A stretch of 64,000 nucleotides of DNA, taken from Flavobacteriales bacterium. GTDB lineage: Bacteria > Bacteroidota > Bacteroidia > Flavobacteriales_D > Crocinitomicaceae. This document shows, piece after piece, positions 4,237 to 42,549 of this stretch (the first letter of the stretch is position 1; the number at the start of each line of letters is the position of its first letter). A model generated the notes under the pieces. It did no database searches, was not told where the DNA came from, and saw nothing but the letters and a program-made list of their open reading frames with translations. The DNA lies in NCBI GenBank assembly GCA_018883325.1, contig VEQH01000008.1:12783-76782 (forward strand), given 5' to 3'. A program made the position numbers and the translations under genes.

Positions 4237-6653
4237 GAGGAGTTTTTGCTTTTTTATTGGTGATGATTTGTGGTCAATTTTGGGCGCAACGAACATTTGT
4301 TTCAGGTAAAATAACCGATGAATCACAAACAGAAATTCCGGGTGTTCGCATCAAAAATTTGACCACCAATAAAAATGCTTCATCAGACGGAAGTGGAAAT
4401 TTTGGAATTCAAGTAGAAAATGGTGACCAATTGCAATTTACATTACAGGGTTACGATACCTTAAACTTGCTTATTTCAAAAGAAGCAACAAGTGAAAAAC
4501 AGCTTAAAATTTCGATGCGTTCGCGAATTGTTGAAATCAATGAAGTTAACATCGTGCGCAAGCGAATGGAAGGTTTTGACGTGGGTTATTTACCTGCGTT
4601 AAAAGGAGTTCAAATCAACACAGGAACAAACGCTGTTATTGAATTGAGTGATTTGAGTGGCGCAAAATCAACAGCAAATCCTCGTGAAATTTTTGCAAAA
4701 GTTCCCGGACTAAATATTTGGGAAAGTGATGGCGCAGGAATTCAAGTTGGAATTGGCGGGAGAGGTTTAAGTCCAGACAGAGCTGCAAATTTCAACACGC
4801 GTCAAAACGGTTACGACATCAGTGCTGATGCTTTGGGTTACCCAGAAAGTTATTACACACCTCCAATTGAAGCGTTGAAATCCATCGAAATCATTCGAGG
4901 TTCCGCTTCTTTGCAGTTTGGTACGCAATTCGGTGGCTTGTTGAATTTTGTAATCAAAGATCCTGAAACCTCAACACCTTTTCACCTCACAAGTCGCTTG
5001 ACAGGTGGAACTTATGGTTATTTAGGTACATTTAATCGCATTTCGGGAACAAAAAATAAATTCGCTTACCAAGTTTACCACCAATTTAAACGAGGCGACG
5101 GCTACCGTCAAAACGCTGGGTTTTACCAGCATCAATTTTTTGGACAAATGGCATTTCAACTTACTGAAAAACAGCTACTAAAACTTGAATATACCCAAAT
5201 GAATTACCTCACTCAACAGCCTGGTGGTTTAACTGATTTACAATTTGAAAATGATATCCGTCAAAGTTTTAGAAACAGAAATTGGTTTGCTGTGGATTGG
5301 AAAATGTTGGCACTCCATTATGATTTTCAAGTTACAAAATCTGCGCTAATAAACGTTCGCGCTTTTGGGATGTTATCCGACCGCAAAAGTTTAGGTTTCT
5401 TAGAAAAAATTACCAAAGAAGATGTTGGCGGACCACGCACAATGATTTTAGGTGAATTTAAAAATGTCGGTGCAGAAACACGTTATTTACAACGCTATGA
5501 ATTAAACGCAAAAACAAAAGGTGCATTTCTTGTCGGTGCAAGATATTACAGAGGATTTACAACTGCTAAACAAGGCAACGCTTCAGCGGATTCAACTGCC
5601 GATTTTTCATTTTCAAACCCTTCCGATTTAGAAAATTCATCTTACCAATTTCCATCAGAAAATATTGCTGGTTTTATTGAAAACATTCTCTTCTTGAATG
5701 ACGATTGGCGATTCAATTTCGGAATGCGTTATGAATACATCACAAGTTCGTCAGAGGGATTTTACAAGCAATATGTAATTCACCCTGTAAACTTAGATAC
5801 AATTGCAACTTACCGCAATGAAAGCGAACGATTTGTGAAACGAAGTTTACCTTTATTTGGCTTTGGACTTTCAAAAAAAATCCTGAAAAACGGAACAGTT
5901 TACGCCAACGCAACTCAAAATTACAGAGCGATTAACTTCACAGATATACGCGTTACGAATCCCAATTTCATTGTCGATACGTTGATGAAAGACGAATACG
6001 GTGTTACAGTAGAATTGGGAACAAGAGGATTACTTTCCAACTTTTTAATCTATGATGTAGCCTTGTATTATTTGTATTATGGCGACAAAATTGGCTTAGC
6101 ACCAAAACTAGGAACGATTTACAAAGAGCGAACAAACATTGGCGACGCACGCAATATGGGAATTGAAATTTTCGCAGAAATAGATTTCCTCAAAATGCAC
6201 AATGAAAAAGCAAAAAATGGTCTTTCTTGGTTCGTAAACGCTGCCTACACAAATGCAATTTATATTCGCTCAAGAGAAACATCTTATGTTGGAAAACAAG
6301 TGGAATATGTAAGTCCATTTATTGTAAAATCGGGATTAAAATTCAAAACAGCTAAACTCACATTACAAGTTCAAGGCTCGTTTAATAGTGCACAATTTAC
6401 CGATGCAACCAATTCAGTTGAACCTTCAGGCGATGCTGTTATTGGACAAATTCCAGCATATTTTGTGGGCGATTTTTCAGGAAGATACGATGTGAGCGAA
6501 CTATTCAAAATTGAACTTGGAGTGAATAATTTCACCAACTCAAAATACTACACCCGTCGCGCTGTTTCTTATCCAGGTCCAGGAATTCTGCCATCGGATG
6601 GTATCAATGCCTACATTACATTGCAGTTTCAGTTGAAAGCTGGCAAAAAGTAA
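4233..6653 (+). CDS. TonB-dependent receptor with carboxypeptidase-regulatory-like N-domain
   Basis: 806 aa. After the signal peptide comes VSGKITDESQTEIPGVRIKN (CarbopepD_reg-like), then a plug region (IEIIRGSASLQFGTQFGGLLNF), then a long beta-barrel region. Confidence 0.85.
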   Translation: MRGVFAFLLVMICGQFWAQRTFVSGKITDESQTEIPGVRIKNLTTNKNASSDGSGNFGIQVENGDQLQFTLQGYDTLNLLISKEATSEKQLKISMRSRIVEINEVNIVRKRMEGFDVGYLPALKGVQINTGTNAVIELSDLSGAKSTANPREIFAKVPGLNIWESDGAGIQVGIGGRGLSPDRAANFNTRQNGYDISADALGYPESYYTPPIEALKSIEIIRGSASLQFGTQFGGLLNFVIKDPETSTPFHLTSRLTGGTYGYLGTFNRISGTKNKFAYQVYHQFKRGDGYRQNAGFYQHQFFGQMAFQLTEKQLLKLEYTQMNYLTQQPGGLTDLQFENDIRQSFRNRNWFAVDWKMLALHYDFQVTKSALINVRAFGMLSDRKSLGFLEKITKEDVGGPRTMILGEFKNVGAETRYLQRYELNAKTKGAFLVGARYYRGFTTAKQGNASADSTADFSFSNPSDLENSSYQFPSENIAGFIENILFLNDDWRFNFGMRYEYITSSSEGFYKQYVIHPVNLDTIATYRNESERFVKRSLPLFGFGLSKKILKNGTVYANATQNYRAINFTDIRVTNPNFIVDTLMKDEYGVTVELGTRGLLSNFLIYDVALYYLYYGDKIGLAPKLGTIYKERTNIGDARNMGIEIFAEIDFLKMHNEKAKNGLSWFVNAAYTNAIYIRSRETSYVGKQVEYVSPFIVKSGLKFKTAKLTLQVQGSFNSAQFTDATNSVEPSGDAVIGQIPAYFVGDFSGRYDVSELFKIELGVNNFTNSKYYTRRAVSYPGPGILPSDGINAYITLQFQLKAGKK

Positions 6654-22894: not shown

Positions 22895-24436
22895 TTACAA
22901 AGGTATATTTCCATGTTTTTTCATTGGTAAAGTTTCTGCTTTTTTCTCCAGCATTTTGAAGCCAGCAATCAATTTGGCTCTTGTTTCTTCGGGAAGAATA
23001 ACGTCGTCCACGATTCCACGTTCGGCAGCACGATAAGGATTTGCGAACATTTCAGCGTATTCAGCTTCCTTCTCCAACCATTTTGCTTGTGGGTCTTCTG
23101 CTGTTGCAATTTCTCTTTTAAAAATAATTTCCGCAGCACCTTTTGCTCCCATTACAGCGATTTCAGCTGTTGGCCATGCAAAATTTAAGTCAGCGCCAAT
23201 GCTTTTAGAGTTCATCACATCAAATGCTCCACCGTAAGCTTTTCTAGTAATTACCGTAATTCTAGGAACGGTAGCTTCTGAAAAGGCGTACAATAATTTT
23301 GCACCATGTGTGATAATTCCTCGCCATTCTTGATCTGTTCCAGGTAAGAAACCAGGTACATCTTCAAATACTAAAAGTGGAATATTGAATGAATCGCAAA
23401 AACGAACGAACCGCGCTCCTTTTCTTGACGCATCGATATCTAAAACACCCGCCATTGCAGACGGTTGATTGGCAACCACGCCAATTGTTCTTCCTTCGAT
23501 ACGTGCGAATCCAACGACAATGTTTTTAGCATAATCGGCTTGAACTTCACGGAAACTATTATCATCAATTACGCAATCCACCACTTTGCGGATGTCGTAA
23601 GGAATATTTGTGTTATCAGGCAGAATTTTTCCAATCTGCTCTAATTTTGCTTTATTAAATGAGTAAATACTCGGTTGAGGCGCTTGCTCATACGCGTTTT
23701 GCGGGAAATAAGTCACCAAATCACGCACTTGCTTCAAACATTCAACGTCGTTTCCAGCCGTAAAATGATTCACTCCCGATTTTTCAGCGTGCGCTTTTGC
23801 TCCACCTAAATCTTCTGAAGTTACTTCTTCGTGTGTCACTGTTTTCACAACGTTTGGACCTGTCACAAACATGTAAGAAGTTTCCTCCACCATGAAAATG
23901 AAATCCGTCAATGCAGGTGAATAAACTGCTCCACCAGCACAAGGCCCCATGATTACTGAAATTTGTGGAATCACCCCAGAAGCACGTGTATTTCTGTAAA
24001 AAATATCAGCATAACCTGCCAATGAAACAACACCTTCTTGAATACGAGCACCACCCGAATCATTCAATCCTATAACCGGTGCACCGTTTTTCATTGCTAA
24101 ATCCATAATTCTACAGATTTTCGCAGCGTGTGTTTCAGAAAGAGAACCACCCAAAACAGTAAAATCTTGAGAAAAAACATAAACAAGTCTTCCGTGGATT
24201 GTTCCATAACCAGTGATTACTCCATCGCCAGGAAATCGGGTTTTATCCAATCCAAATGCATTGGAACGATGTTCAACAAATGCGCCAATTTCTTGAAAAG
24301 AATCTTCATCCAAAAGAACAGTAACACGCTCTCTTGCTGATAATTTTCCTTGTTGGTGTTGCTTATTGATGCGCTCAATTCCTCCTCCGAGTTTGGCGTC
24401 TTCTCTTCTATTGAGTAAATCTTGGTTTCTATCCAT
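22895..24436 (-). CDS. acyl-CoA carboxylase carboxyltransferase (beta) subunit (propionyl-/methylmalonyl-CoA type)
   Basis: Strong family character ([56 protein letters not shown]). I prefer the ATG at 24436 because the TTG at 24454 lies inside the -7 box. Confidence 0.9.
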
Positions 24437-24451
24437 AATTAATGTGCTTGA

Positions 24452-24459
24452 CAAAAATA
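24452..24459 (-). promoter_or_regulatory. -7 promoter box TAnnTTTG
   Basis: The minus strand reads TATTTTTG 15 nt upstream of the ATG at 24436. Confidence 0.35.
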
Positions 24460-24555
24460 AGGATTATTGCGAAAGGAGTTAAGCTCAAAAAATAATGAAA
24501 TCAATAAATTGAAAAAAAAACAATCTAAATGAGAGTAAATGCTATAAAATTATTC

Positions 24556-25218
24556 CTATTGATTTGCTTTTTCAATTAAAGTTTGAACCCAGTTTTTGAA
24601 TCTTAAGCATCTAGTTAACAAAACTTCTATTTCATTTATTTCTGCAATTAAAGGTCCATGAAAAGTTTTACGATATCCTGGAATGAGTTGTTCAAGTCTT
24701 TTTGAAGGAACAGTCAATTCACCATCATTCAATTCTTCGGGGTTTTCTTTTTCATTTACTGCTAATAATAAACTTTTTAAGCTTGCTTGTTTTATGTCAG
24801 GTAAAAATTCAAAACCATCTTTTGAAGCAAACAATAGGCCTTCAAATTCATGTAATTGAATATAAGGAACAAATCTTGGGTGATTTATTGCTATTGTTAA
24901 TGCATTTTCTAAAAAATCAACTCTTTGAATTTTATTTTGAATAGCTTTTGCTTCTCCAAATTTTGGAAAATCATTAACTAGCCTAAAAAAATCGATGAAT
25001 GTAGATACTAAAATATCTGTTTCTCTCTTTAGTAACTTATCAATGTTGTGTTTTAGTCTATCGTATTTCACATCTCCTCCTTTTTGTCCTTTGCTAGTAT
25101 TCATCAATATTGGACGCACATCAAAAATATGATTATTATAAAAAAAGGGTCTTAGAAGTTTATTTACAAATTCTTCCTCTGTGGGACCTTCGCAAATTAT
25201 GTAGATCGCTCTTATCAT
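24556..25218 (-). CDS. DUF4276 / RloB-like (Toprim-like) protein, putative nuclease partner of the upstream ATPase
   Basis: 220 aa. The N-terminal strand IYIICEGPTEEEFVNKLL has a conserved Glu, and there is a later acidic patch YIQLHEFEGLLFAS. Its start overlaps the ATPase stop by 4 nt (25215..25218). Confidence 0.6.
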   Translation of the reverse strand: MIRAIYIICEGPTEEEFVNKLLRPFFYNNHIFDVRPILMNTSKGQKGGDVKYDRLKHNIDKLLKRETDILVSTFIDFFRLVNDFPKFGEAKAIQNKIQRVDFLENALTIAINHPRFVPYIQLHEFEGLLFASKDGFEFLPDIKQASLKSLLLAVNEKENPEELNDGELTVPSKRLEQLIPGYRKTFHGPLIAEINEIEVLLTRCLRFKNWVQTLIEKANQ

Positions 25219-26324
25219 AATCTACCACCTATTACATTTTTCTCCCACAATTCACCTATTGAATAGTCTTCTAACCAAGATTGAAGTGACTCTTCAGATT
25301 GTCTTTTAAATACTGTTTGATTATCTTCTCTGTCGGCTACAATAATATCAGAAGCAGAAAATTCATTTATTAGATTTACAGATTGTGTGGCAATAATAAT
25401 CTGAGAATGAACCGCAGCTCTTTTTATCATTCCAGCTAATTTTGTAATTGCAAAGGGATGTAATCCTAATTCAGGTTCATCTAAAATAATTGTATTAGGA
25501 AGAATTGGTTGAAGAAGTAAGGTAGAAAGTGCAATAAATCGTAAAGTACCATCCGATAAATGATGTGCATTAAAATAATCATCAGAGCCTTTTTCTAACC
25601 AATTCAAAAAAATCACATCAGGATTTCTATCATCAGGTGATAAATCAAATTTTTCAAAGAATGGAGCAACTGATGATATGGTGTACTCAATCATTTTAAA
25701 ATGCTTAGGATGTGTGTCTTTTATTTTATAAAGAAAAGCAGCTAAATTACTTCCATCTGATTTTAAATATTTGTAATCTAACGTTTTACTTGGTTGTTTC
25801 AAGGATGAACTAGAACTTGTGTCGTGAAAATGAAAGACATTGAAACTGTTAAAGAAATTTCTTAAAAAATCAGCTCGCTGAAGACTGTTTTCTGCAATTC
25901 CGCTTTCTTCTTTTCCCTTGCCACCCAAATCTTCATAAATCCAAGATTCTTCAAATCCATTTGAATTAGTATTAAAACCTCCCTCATCTTTTTCAAAATA
26001 AAATCCAGAAGCTTGTTTTTTTGGTACTATTTTAAAGTCATAGCGATTATTGGTGTTTCTGCCTTCTGGTTTGAACACAATACTTCCCTCTATTGAATTT
26101 GATTTTTTCCTCCCAAAATATAACAAACTGTTTTCATAACCGTTTTCGGCAACAAAAAAACTTAATCTATTTTTTGAAATACTATTTAGCATTTTAAAAA
26201 ATGAAATGAAGTTACTTTTACCAACCCCATTTGCTCCAATCAATATATTAATAGACTGTAAATAAATGTTGCCAGAGTCTTTAATAGACTTAAAATTTTT
26301 GATGCTAATTCTATCAATTGGCAT
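25215..26324 (-). CDS. ABC-type (AAA_15/AAA_21, OLD/AriA/AbiLi-like) ATPase
   Basis: 369 aa. Walker A is IGANGVGKSN. After a long insert come LSDGTLRFIAL (signature-like), Walker B TIILDEPELGLHP, and IIATQS. Confidence 0.8.
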   Translation of the reverse strand: MPIDRISIKNFKSIKDSGNIYLQSINILIGANGVGKSNFISFFKMLNSISKNRLSFFVAENGYENSLLYFGRKKSNSIEGSIVFKPEGRNTNNRYDFKIVPKKQASGFYFEKDEGGFNTNSNGFEESWIYEDLGGKGKEESGIAENSLQRADFLRNFFNSFNVFHFHDTSSSSSLKQPSKTLDYKYLKSDGSNLAAFLYKIKDTHPKHFKMIEYTISSVAPFFEKFDLSPDDRNPDVIFLNWLEKGSDDYFNAHHLSDGTLRFIALSTLLLQPILPNTIILDEPELGLHPFAITKLAGMIKRAAVHSQIIIATQSVNLINEFSASDIIVADREDNQTVFKRQSEESLQSWLEDYSIGELWEKNVIGGRL

Positions 26325-26568
26325 TTTTGTTGTTTTAGATTTATGAACTATTTATGTTTTAAATTATTCTAATAATTATTGTTTAGTTTTAAAAATTAAA
26401 TGTCATTTTGAGAGTTAATTTTTAATAAGTTAACTAATTCGATTATCATTTTTCTGAATTATTTTAATTGATCTTTCAAAGTTAACTTTATTCTTATTTC
26501 ATAATCTTCTAAGTTATTCTGAATTTATAGCTTCTTTTAAAATTTGAATTCGAAGAATTTTTCACTTT

Positions 26569-29979: not shown

Positions 29980-30672
29980 ATGAAAAAAAAATTGGTTGTT
30001 TTTTCAGGTGCGGGTATGAGCGCAGAAAGTGGAATTGGAACTTTCAGAGATGCAGGTGGTCTTTGGGAACAATATAACATTGAGGATGTTGCGACGCCAG
30101 AAGCATGGAAAAAAAATCCTGATTTAGTGACCGATTTCTACAATCAACGCCGAAAACAAGTGATTGAAGCCGTACCAAATTCAGCGCATTTATTAATAGC
30201 TTCTTTAGAGAAATATTTTGTGGTTCATGTTGTTACACAAAACATCGACGATTTACATGAACGAGCTGGTTCTAGTTCCGTTTTACATCTTCATGGAAAT
30301 ATTCGTTTAGCAAAATCGTCTGGACCGAATCAAGAAGATCGGTATTATCCTATTGAAGGTTGGGAACTGACAGCAAATGATAAATGTCCTGACGGTTTTC
30401 CTTTGCGACCGCATGTCGTTTGGTTTGGAGAACAAGTTCCAGCATTAAATGACGCCGCAAAAATTATTCAAGAAGCTGATATTCTTGTTGTTGTTGGAAC
30501 TTCGCTTCAAGTTTACCCTGCGGCAGGTTTGGTTCATTTAGCTCCTGGAAATTGCAAATGCTATGTTATTGATCCAAATAGTGATGAATTTGAAGTTCCA
30601 TCGAATTTTATAAAAATCAAGGCAAACGCAAGTGAAGGAATGCGTGAATTGATACAGCGAATAACAGACTAA
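29980..30672 (+). CDS. cobB: Sir2-family NAD-dependent protein deacylase
   Basis: GAGMSAESGIGTFRD, QNIDDLHERAG, HLHGN and RPHVVWFGE are canonical sirtuin motifs. Confidence 0.85.
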   Translation: MKKKLVVFSGAGMSAESGIGTFRDAGGLWEQYNIEDVATPEAWKKNPDLVTDFYNQRRKQVIEAVPNSAHLLIASLEKYFVVHVVTQNIDDLHERAGSSSVLHLHGNIRLAKSSGPNQEDRYYPIEGWELTANDKCPDGFPLRPHVVWFGEQVPALNDAAKIIQEADILVVVGTSLQVYPAAGLVHLAPGNCKCYVIDPNSDEFEVPSNFIKIKANASEGMRELIQRITD

Positions 30673-42027: not shown

Positions 42028-42549
42028 TTAATTAAAAAGATTAATTATTCCACCTATAAGTCCAAAAAAAGCAGATATAATAAATGCATAAATAGCTAAT
42101 TTAAAATATTGCCATGAACTCAACTGTTCTTCTTTGTACCCATTTTTATATCTTGCATCAGGTTTTCTCAAACGATATGAAATAATACAAAAACCAATAA
42201 AAAAAATTAAAGCAAAACAAGACCCAAAAACGTCCACAAAACCAGCCACAAAACCATTTTTATGAACATTTCCAATATTTACTTCTTCTCTATAACTAAT
42301 GGTAGTTAAGAACTCATTAGAAACACTACCGTATTTTTGATTATACTTAACGAAGGCCCAACCTTCATTTACATAATATACTTTAACTGTGTCGCCTTTA
42401 TTTATCGTAGTTATTGTTTCTGAGTTTGTTGAGGCGGACTTCCTTAAATTTAAGCTCACAGTTGATACAGCATAATAAGCTTCTTCGCTTGCAAATGAGT
42501 TAATTGAAAGAAATAAACTCCAAATTAATATAAGACTTCTTATTTTCAT
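42028..42549 (-). CDS. SH3b-domain protein with C-terminal TM helices
   Basis: Signal peptide, an SH3_3-like region (VSTVSLNLRKSASTNSETITTINKGDTVKVYYVNEGWAFVKY), and two C-terminal hydrophobic helices. Confidence 0.55.
   Translation of the reverse strand: MKIRSLILIWSLFLSINSFASEEAYYAVSTVSLNLRKSASTNSETITTINKGDTVKVYYVNEGWAFVKYNQKYGSVSNEFLTTISYREEVNIGNVHKNGFVAGFVDVFGSCFALIFFIGFCIISYRLRKPDARYKNGYKEEQLSSWQYFKLAIYAFIISAFFGLIGGIINLFN

Follow-up and report, generated by a model that had tools for sequence, protein, structure and literature searches.

The window analysed here is a stretch of 64,000 nt of contig VEQH01000008.1 from a Flavobacteriales bacterium (Crocinitomicaceae), and all coordinates are given as positions in this window. 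A two-gene cassette composed of an ABC-type ATPase gene and a DUF4276 gene is encoded on its minus strand, and it is a solo copy of the PADLOC candidate anti-phage system HEC-01, i.e. of an already catalogued system and not of a new category. The two genes form a coupled operon with intact nucleotide-binding motifs, the small protein has a predicted fold of the OLD nuclease type, the pair is co-inherited among relatives, and it was acquired horizontally. On the evidence presented below, this horizontally acquired solo copy probably works as an ATPase-Toprim defence module. HEC-01 is abundant yet mechanistically unstudied, and the locus offers a clean and minimal example of a natural solo copy, in which the insertion boundary is defined and an empty site is at hand for comparison.

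The HEC-01 operon and its relatives

The ORF list and the profile matches define two open reading frames (ORFs), both intact and with exactly the positions and lengths claimed in the original prediction, namely HEC-01A (25215..26324, minus strand), coding for an ATPase of 369 amino acids, and HEC-01B (24556..25218, minus strand), coding for a DUF4276 protein of 220 amino acids. They overlap by 4 nt in an ATGA read in the sequence (25215..25218, minus strand), which joins the stop codon TGA of the ATPase gene to the start codon ATG of the DUF4276 gene, as in translational coupling. The assignment to HEC-01 was made with the hidden Markov models (HMMs) of PADLOC-DB v2, for two genes that are adjacent, on the same strand and overlapping by these 4 nt. 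Indeed (i) the ATPase matches the HEC-01A model PDLC04175 (E 1.4e-138, 460 bits, profile positions 5-361 of 363) and Pfam AAA_21 (E 3e-33, model positions 1-304 of 304), with weaker matches to AAA_15 and SMC_N (E 3e-12 for the latter), and (ii) the small protein matches the HEC-01B model PDLC04188 (E 2.6e-73, profile positions 13-226 of 230) and Pfam DUF4276 (E 1.6e-49, model positions 1-191 of 192). The cassette thus shares with HEC-01 the same two families in the same order, with full-length matches to the HEC-01A and HEC-01B models. In NCBIfam, no equivalog reaches its cut-off for the ATPase and no family was found for the small protein.

HEC-01, which stands for 'Hma-embedded candidate 01', was described as an ABC ATPase with a TOPRIM protein sharing the metal site of Bp OLD (Payne et al. 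2024, bioRxiv 10.1101/2024.01.29.577857). The cassette had been predicted to be an uncharacterised candidate system; it is indeed an ATPase/Toprim candidate, but one that was already named, described and assayed in that study. The statement that no experimental characterisation of a DUF4276 version was known has to be withdrawn, as two assays of HEC-01 have been published, one negative and one positive, and deletion of mad3 or mad4 weakens defence by the MADS system (bioRxiv 10.1101/2023.03.30.534895). DUF4276 has been placed in the Toprim superfamily, with Mad4 as a DUF4276 homologue (PMC12065111). The positive assay comes from a study of cold-seep genomes, in which HEC-01 is among the 12 commonest system types and, in spot assays, a cold-seep representative conferred protection on E. 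coli B against one or more of the phages T7, T5 and T4 (2026 Nat Commun study).

The pair is conserved as neighbours, as had been predicted. A scan of species-representative genomes gave more than 570 relatives and returned 80 loci, to which two looked-up loci were added, making 82 loci examined. An ATPase homologue lies directly upstream of the DUF4276 gene, at a distance of at most 27 nt, in about 78 of them, and the exceptions are a contig end (L042), three apparent frameshifts (L034, L068, L070) and locus L080. The latter is the only one of the 82 in which the DUF4276 gene lacks an ATPase (L080, 2853-7645); there, the gene follows at 195 nt that of a 1315-amino-acid enzyme with a ResIII helicase and an Eco57I-type methylase, which matches Type IIG models. 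An apparent in-frame fusion of the ATPase (72% identical to that of the window) and the DUF4276 protein was found in one metagenomic homologue of 592 amino acids (P0169, on a Logan contig of 5,480 nt), and such a fusion would re-create a single polypeptide resembling OLD. The DUF4276 partner alone amounts to about 2,900 clusters at 50% identity.

Predicted folds, putative active sites and known systems

The small protein was modelled with AlphaFold2 (pLDDT, or predicted local distance difference test, 84.5; predicted template modelling score, pTM, 0.83). A Foldseek search with this model gave only two PDB matches below E 0.02, namely 6njv (E 5e-4) and 6nk8 (E 2e-3), which are both C-terminal regions of class 2 OLD proteins (probability 1.0, TM-score 0.45-0.53, about 230 aligned columns). 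HEC-01B is thereby predicted to be an OLD-like nuclease with a Toprim and a helical domain. In Pfam, the small protein has no Toprim or OLD match at E ≤1, and among the viral models of BFVD no significant Foldseek match was found, a phage RloB-like protein standing at rank 30 (E 0.24).

Conservation of the DUF4276 protein was counted in 83 homologues with 35-100% identity, and the residues concerned are all encoded on the minus strand. In brief, these include: (i) E10 and E14 in the motif CEGPTEEE at the end of strand beta1 (25177..25191), the putative metal-A/metal-B glutamates, with E10, G11 and E14 present in 83/83; (ii) D76, a lone Asp at the position of the DxD motif (24991-24993), present in 81/83; (iii) H123-E124-F125-E126 after strand beta4 (24841..24852), which contains putative metal-B ligands (H123 and E124 in 82/83 each, E126 in 83/83); and (iv) S172-K173-R174 (24697-24705), a candidate equivalent of the OLD catalytic Lys K562 (K173 in 75/83, R174 in 83/83). 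The active site of Bp OLD comprises E400, E404, D455/D457, T506/E508 and K562 (PMC6755086), and E10/E14, D76, E124/E126 and K173/R174 are colinear with E400/E404, D455, T506/E508 and K562, respectively. This residue correspondence is a putative one, drawn from order, spacing, secondary structure and the fold match. The expected Toprim-like partner of DUF4276 type was thus recovered, with its Pfam match, its predicted OLD-type Toprim and helical fold and its invariant acidic residues.

For the ATPase, the AlphaFold2 model (pLDDT 89.5, pTM 0.87) has as its best Foldseek matches the SMC head 4i99, cohesin and Rad50 (3qku), and PtuA ATPases from Septu and retron systems (8sux) come next; E ranges from 1e-13 to 4e-15 and the TM-score from 0.5 to 0.7 over all of these matches. 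Since the model best fits the SMC, cohesin and Rad50 heads and then PtuA, the ATPase is of the ABC type and not of the AAA+ type. The Pfam match and this SMC/Rad50/PtuA-like predicted fold agree with the SMC-like AAA_15/AAA_21 layout that had been read from the 369-amino-acid protein, and all of the motifs quoted at that stage for the two proteins (GANGVGKSN, LSDGTLRF, IILDEPELGLHP, IIATQS, IYIICEGPTEEEF and HEFEGLLF) were found.

The ATPase motifs, again encoded on the minus strand, were compared among 78 diverged homologues, with identity down to 41%. The Walker A motif or P-loop GANGVGKS (26214..26237, residues 30-37; GANGVGKSN being residues 30-38) has G30, N32, G33, G35 and K36 invariant in 78/78, the ABC signature LSDGTLRF (25536-25559, residues 256-263) has S257, D258, G259 and R262 in 78/78, and the Walker B motif with the D-loop, IILDEPELGLHP (25455-25493, residues 279-290), has D282, E283, E285 and H289 in 78/78. 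ABC ATPases normally have a His at the H-loop. Here, T313-Q314-S315 (25380-25388), with all three residues present in 78/78, appears to hold the H-loop position, to judge from the place of Q314 after strand 308-313 of the model, and Gln replaces the usual His. A variable, beta-rich insert (25761..26189, minus strand, residues 46-188) follows the Walker A helix and is delimited by the contrast in identity between two ATPase subtypes described below.

Folds of these kinds are common to RecF/RecN/SMC and to Toprim proteins, and with the SMC_N match and the SMC/Rad50 heads as top structural matches the cassette could also be read as a housekeeping DNA-repair pair like RecF and RecR, which are an SMC-like ABC ATPase and a Toprim protein, respectively. 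This reading is disfavoured and seems extremely improbable. Indeed, the NCBIfam recF model TIGR00611 gives the ATPase 23 bits against a cut-off of 172, the structural matches of the small protein are OLD nucleases only and not RecR, the cassette is missing from the same site in close relatives, and its distribution is patchy, with horizontal transfer and embedding in restriction-modification (R-M) operons.

The cassette was compared with OLD nucleases of class 1 (P2 Old and Ts OLD) and class 2 (Bp and Xcc OLD, 6nk8 and 6njv). The cassette and OLD both join an ABC ATPase to a Toprim-helical nuclease, and the only significant structural matches of the small protein are to class 2 OLD C-terminal regions. 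However, OLD carries ATPase and Toprim in one polypeptide, whereas two ORFs are present here (the apparent fusion occurring in the rare homologue P0169 only). Furthermore, the ATPase of the window is compact (369 amino acids), its insert is beta-rich and without a long helical arm in the model, the DxD motif is reduced to D-F/Y-F/Y and the H-loop position is occupied by Gln. Class 2 OLD and Gabija have a UvrD-like helicase partner; the cassette, in contrast, has no adjacent UvrD-like helicase gene. Gabija was rejected on this absence and on the GajA model, which matches residues 248-337 only (E 7e-15).

With PARIS, the cassette shares an ABC ATPase of the AAA_15/21 type and a separate Toprim effector, encoded by two genes, and DUF4276 is one of the domains that the PARIS paper marks on its tree of AAA15/21 ATPase defence proteins. 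The generic AriA/AAA_21 model PDLC02980 (304 positions) matches the ATPase with E 4.6e-31, but the HEC-01A models score far higher, and the specific AriA model PDLC02979 matches residues 1-51 only. At E ≤1, the small protein matches only DUF4276 (Pfam) and HEC-01B (PADLOC), and no DUF4435. AbiL (RloA-RloB) and Menshen (NsnB-NsnC) were likewise rejected: the AbiLi model (E 7e-23, a partial match to profile positions 51-263 of 326) and the NsnB model (E 1e-19) match the ATPase, and the small protein matches no RloB/AbiLii or NsnC model. RloB and DUF4276 have both been described as Toprim members used as effectors (PMC12065111). The PARIS- or AbiL-like logic with a different effector family, which had been proposed for this cassette, therefore holds in the sense that neither DUF4435 nor RloB is matched and that the system is neither PARIS nor AbiL.

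In MADS (Maestri et al.), Mad3 and Mad4 are also an ABC ATPase and a DUF4276-type protein, and the PADLOC mad3 model matches the ATPase over its full length (E 3e-28). Unlike the cassette, Mad3 and Mad4 are accessory parts of an eight-gene methylation-based system, of which MAD6-8 are mandatory in the published model (10.1101/2023.03.30.534895). MADS was rejected here, and the kinship with Mad3/Mad4 is a distant one: the NCBIfam MAD3 model gives 94 bits where its cut-off is 420, HEC-01B models are the only ones of PADLOC that the small protein matches, and the neighbours are housekeeping genes, with no other mad genes. The MANTIS preprint proved irrelevant, as it contains no TOPRIM or ABC ATPase.

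Horizontal acquisition and Type III R-M context

The cassette lies between a DUF6567 gene and a carboxyltransferase gene (propionyl-CoA carboxylase beta-subunit), i.e. between core metabolic genes as previously noted, these flanks being housekeeping genes that are syntenic in relatives. One Crocinitomicaceae-like Flavobacteriales lineage gained the cassette by horizontal transfer, and it is not a core element. Same-species contigs from at least seven samples carry it at the same site, with both ORFs intact in all of them. It is missing from this site in two close relatives, which fits the patchy presence that had been anticipated. In the first (L095), the carboxyltransferase is 98% and the pgi, lipB and beta-lactamase-family proteins are 95-96% identical to those of the window; the second (L087) is more distant (carboxyltransferase 97%, other genes 82-89% identical) and keeps the order hydrolase - DUF6567 - carboxyltransferase - pgi - lipB without the cassette. 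A metagenome scan with the DUF6567 neighbour gave one locus only, and the sample of empty sites was therefore widened with carboxyltransferase homologues. Three further relatives (carboxyltransferase 90% identical) keep the downstream synteny and lack the cassette.

At exactly 24477 in both L087 and L095, just upstream of the promoter box of the carboxyltransferase gene, homology to the window sets in again, and 24478-26568 (2.09 kb) is specific to the window. Neither a target-site duplication nor terminal inverted repeats were found for this segment, the repeats present being short AT-rich chance matches. Besides the two genes, the segment comprises a lineage-specific trailer (24478..24555, minus strand), defined by the empty-site alignment with L087 and lying between the DUF4276 stop codon and the resumed homology, and a lineage-specific leader of 244 nt on the 5' side of the ATPase gene (26325..26568, minus strand). 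Nucleotide homology to other HEC-01 loci begins 17 nt ahead of the ATPase ATG and stops about 7 nt short of the stop codon of the DUF4276 gene; since it spans only the two genes, the leader and the trailer are local. No leader shared among solo copies was found, homology ending 17 nt before the ATG, and the leader matches neither the leader nor the flanks of any relative.

Other sequences occupy the same breakpoint in the cassette-free relatives. An unrelated spacer of about 350 nt is present in L087 (8281-8631) where the window has the cassette, and L095 carries at least 472 nt of unrelated sequence (1-472), with an ORF of 76 amino acids that lacks a Pfam match. With three lineages differing, this place next to the carboxyltransferase promoter, on its upstream side, is possibly a small hotspot of variation.

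Beyond this lineage, relatives with 70-80% identity bear the names of Flavobacteriales, Cytophagales, Bacteroidales and Chitinophagales and, in some cases, of bins outside the Bacteroidota, which is consistent with a recent horizontal spread across orders. Distant relatives (29-39% identical) were found on 13 of 72,556 plasmids. One of these plasmids, the MOBQ mobilizable plasmid pTR11_2 of Acinetobacter sp. TR11 (L094, 10,958 bp), carries an AAA ATPase and DUF4276 pair with 38% identity (4883-6639) between vapBC and tetR/tet(39).

The context of the relatives was classified for each of 79 loci, with flanks of up to 10 kb, and 66 of them were assessable. The pair is embedded between the methyltransferase (mod) and endonuclease (res) genes of a Type III R-M system in 18 loci, is flanked on one side by mod or res only in seven, and has an R-M gene within 10 kb in a non-adjacent position in one; no Type III mod or res was found within up to 10 kb in 40, and the flanks were too short to judge in 13. 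A linkage to Type III R-M is thus present in 25 of the 66 assessable loci. One relative embedded in this way is found in a Salegentibacter Hel_I_6 operon (L004). Pfam tallies of the immediate neighbours gave N6_N4_Mtase in 19 of 76 loci on the upstream side and, on the downstream side, ResIII (with RE_endonuc) in 19 of 72, and the remaining neighbours are heterogeneous and often housekeeping. With the PADLOC HMMs, the flanking genes are a canonical Type III methyltransferase (627 bits) and a canonical Type III restriction endonuclease (1005 bits), which rules out an Hma context for the close relatives. HEC-01 was originally found embedded in Hma systems, whereas the copy of the window, from an uncultured Flavobacteriales lineage, is solo between housekeeping genes and its nearest relatives lie in Type III R-M loci. 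The survey of Payne et al. covered embedding in Hma, BREX, DISARM and Type I systems, and Type III R-M was not among them.

Solo copies occur in different surroundings: one (L013) lies in a defence island, with McrBC upstream and DUF6088/AbiEii downstream, and another (L018) between housekeeping genes. As to whether the pair falls in defence islands elsewhere, a defence context is seen in the 25 of 66 loci tied to Type III R-M and in L013, with its McrBC and AbiE genes. Type III R-M operons with HEC-01 can also hold further embedded genes, namely a complete Type IIG enzyme (1170 bits) with two small ORFs (L006, 10677-14736), a YhcG/DUF1016 PD-(D/E)xK nuclease between mod and HEC-01A (L010, 5922-6929) and a similarly placed ORF of 338 amino acids (L012, 3294-4310).

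This context raises the most serious alternative, namely that the pair works only with Type III R-M, for instance as a guard triggered by blocked restriction or as an auxiliary nuclease against unmethylated DNA, and that the solo copy is an orphan, inert or acting in trans with R-M encoded elsewhere in the genome. Within the clade of the window (DUF4276 identity of 70% or more), canonical MTase_III and REase_III genes adjoin the pair in 13 of 15 loci, as mod directly upstream, as res downstream or as both, and the solo copy is the exception within its own clade. The 17 nt of homology shared upstream of the ATPase gene are the 3' end of mod in the embedded copies, which suggests that the solo copy derives from an ancestor embedded in a Type III R-M system. 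In MADS, the methyltransferase gene mad5 could be deleted only together with mad2 or mad3 (10.1101/2023.03.30.534895), and a link between the ATPase and methylation-dependent toxicity follows for this alternative. Nevertheless, such a strict dependence on R-M seems unlikely: no Type III mod or res is found within up to 10 kb in 40 of the 66 assessable loci, L018 stands among housekeeping genes, and one pair is on a 10.9-kb plasmid without R-M. In the window, both genes are intact with every invariant residue kept and are maintained in at least seven samples, and no remnant of mod or res was found in the 64 kb (best E >1). Payne et al. also picked HEC-01 since it is common outside its host systems (10.1101/2024.01.29.577857).

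A tightly coupled pair that travels as a unit, is found on plasmids beside vapBC and has no recognisable mobility genes of its own could also be an addiction or stability module, in which a nuclease toxin would be restrained by the ATPase and the pair kept since its loss is harmful. AAA_21 is called 'putative AbiEii toxin, Type IV TA system' in Pfam, and this name hints weakly in the same direction. We regard this explanation as quite improbable, given that an ABC ATPase with a Toprim protein is the architecture of the OLD, Gabija and PARIS defence systems, that the pair is preferentially embedded in R-M operons and rare on plasmids (13/72,556), and that one positive anti-phage assay was reported for HEC-01.

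Insert variants, proposed mode of action and minor features

Two features of the cassette go beyond the literature consulted: the existence of two ATPase insert subtypes and that of a mosaic same-species allele with a substitution at E10. Regarding the former, DUF4276 partners about 76% identical to that of the window are paired with two ATPase subtypes (L006, L007, L010-L012, L014, L015 and L019). The second subtype (L006, L010, L011, L014 and L019) is 60% identical to the ATPase of the window over residues 1-45, 27-30% over residues 46-188 and 70-74% over residues 189-369, with a recombination breakpoint between the subtypes at the nucleotide level near residue 188. The insert was exchanged while the core and the nuclease were kept, a pattern expected of a specificity or sensor module, and residues 46-188 are a candidate trigger-sensing module. 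Payne et al. similarly suggested that ATPase inserts sense triggers, e.g. anti-defence proteins, and that embedding provides a backup defence (10.1101/2024.01.29.577857).

The second same-species allele is present in four samples (L088-L091), in which the DUF4276 protein is 93% identical to that of the window and the ATPase and flanks are 98-100% identical. Most of the differences between the window and L088/L089 in the DUF4276 gene (44 of 47) fall within a 127-nt mosaic tract (24938..25064, minus strand; residues 52-94, with helix 2, strand beta3 and D76), which is about 35% divergent in the alignment with these contigs; this indicates a probable gene conversion from another HEC-01B. The tract of the window is 93-95% identical at the protein level to P0034 and P0008, whose overall identity to the window is 76-78%. 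The L088-L091 allele also has E10K at the otherwise invariant (83/83) predicted catalytic Glu, through a nucleotide difference at 25191, and the window keeps E10. Samples SRR35566623 and SRR35566619 carry one of the two alleles, and ERR15663834 and SRR12487006 the other.

This substitution at an invariant position in four samples, the frameshifted copies elsewhere (L034, L068, L070) and the HEC-01 representative without a phenotype could together point to non-functional or decaying passenger DNA in this lineage, and E10K could equally mark the decay of an orphaned R-M accessory. The passenger explanation seems very improbable, as both proteins of the window allele retain all of their invariant residues, the two ORFs are intact in each of the same-species contigs, and the ATPase is 99.5-100% identical between the alleles.

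If the cassette works as an ATPase-Toprim defence module, a mode of action can be proposed, with OLD, Gabija and PARIS as analogues and the variability of the insert as a further guide. HEC-01A and HEC-01B would form a complex, i.e. a 'split OLD', in which the ATPase would hold the nuclease inactive and sense an infection cue via insert residues 46-188. A phage protein would be the most likely cue, perhaps one that counteracts restriction. The Toprim nuclease could then be licensed to cut nucleic acid once ATP is bound or, in view of the invariant Gln in the H-loop position, slowly hydrolysed. The target could be either DNA, which OLD and GajA cleave, or tRNA, the target of AriB. Cleavage would stop the propagation of the phage or plasmid, possibly at the cost of the cell. 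The copies embedded between mod and res would form a second layer behind Type III restriction, and that of the window, if active, would act alone.

A more specific model can be offered tentatively. HEC-01 may be an autonomous split OLD made of three exchangeable pieces, namely a conserved Toprim nuclease, a conserved ATPase core and a recombining insert (residues 46-188), which would set the specificity for phage or anti-restriction triggers. Copies embedded between Type III mod and res would guard restriction against anti-restriction proteins, solo copies such as that of the window would be abortive on their own, and the cost of the system would be reflected in a polymorphism between an active allele (E10) and a catalytically dead one (K10, with the gene-conversion tract).

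Several points weigh against a working OLD-like defence module. The Toprim assignment comes from a predicted structure, with moderate TM-scores (0.45-0.53) and a root-mean-square deviation of 7-8 Å, and the link cannot be shown by sequence, because the DUF4276 profile finds no real match among all PDB chains (best E 0.19, all spurious). The second Asp of the DxD motif is replaced by F or Y in 83/83 homologues, the motif being D-F-F here, and we infer that the two proteins form a complex, as well as what the trigger, the substrate and the function of the insert are. The representative of HEC-01 tested by Payne et al. did not protect E. coli from classic coliphages or from a subset of the BASEL phages (10.1101/2024.01.29.577857), and the positive report is a spot assay of one representative, with a text that gives no fold-change (2026 Nat Commun study); the two published tests disagree, and validation is limited and conflicting. 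The E10K allele means that an inactive nuclease may be tolerated or favoured in at least some of the population. Finally, no DUF4276 relatives were found among 50,697 phage records, whereas PARIS is often encoded in viral genomes according to the PARIS paper; this absence separates the cassette from PARIS-like satellite-borne systems and says nothing of function.

The locus is valuable as a test case for two questions, namely how infection is sensed by ABC ATPase–Toprim defence modules and whether these modules depend on the R-M systems that usually surround them. Handles for experiments are provided by the two insert variants with near-identical nucleases, the E10K allele, the apparent fusion and the embedding in Type III R-M.

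Regarding composition, the mean GC content is 34.7% for the window and 35.0% (sd 2.9) for its 47 large ORFs. The DUF4276 gene (29.3%, z -2.0) and the ATPase gene (30.3%, z -1.65) are the second and third lowest of these 47 ORFs, and at third codon positions (GC3) they have 16.7% and 19.2%, respectively, against a mean of 27.9%, i.e. the lowest and third-lowest values. Both genes are thus low in GC as first proposed, which fits their horizontal acquisition, but the contrast is weaker than claimed, since the carboxyltransferase gene used as comparator sits at the GC-rich extreme (40-43%). The ORF with the lowest GC content in the window is at 42028-42549 (28.7%, GC3 18.4%) and codes for a protein of 173 amino acids with a bacterial SH3_3 domain.

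The leader at 26325-26568 is the most AT-rich stretch of the neighbourhood, and its length of 244 bp and its low GC content (about 0.21-0.25) agree with the first description. It contains a candidate Bacteroidetes-type -7 motif TAnnTTTG (TAACTTTG), found by motif search on the minus strand, which starts at 26484, 160 nt before the ATG, and may act as a promoter, and a 17-nt AT-rich inverted repeat, found by repeat search (26389-26425, minus strand). An Rfam search of the leader gave no match at E ≤1, its RNA folding is not better than that of shuffled sequences (z -0.52), and no intrinsic terminator was predicted at the trailer or cassette. A scan for sigma-70 promoters is uninformative for Bacteroidota.

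The neighbouring carboxyltransferase ORF is listed from a TTG at 24454. Its true start is the ATG at 24436, because all 120 homologues listed have 513 amino acids, and the TTG is enclosed in a Bacteroidetes-type -7 promoter box of this gene, TATTTTTG (24452-24459, minus strand), which is conserved in cassette-free relatives. Furthermore, an ORF of 230 amino acids (29980-30672) resembles by eye a Sir2/CobB-type NAD-dependent deacylase (GAGMSAESGIGTFRD...) and is probably a housekeeping gene.

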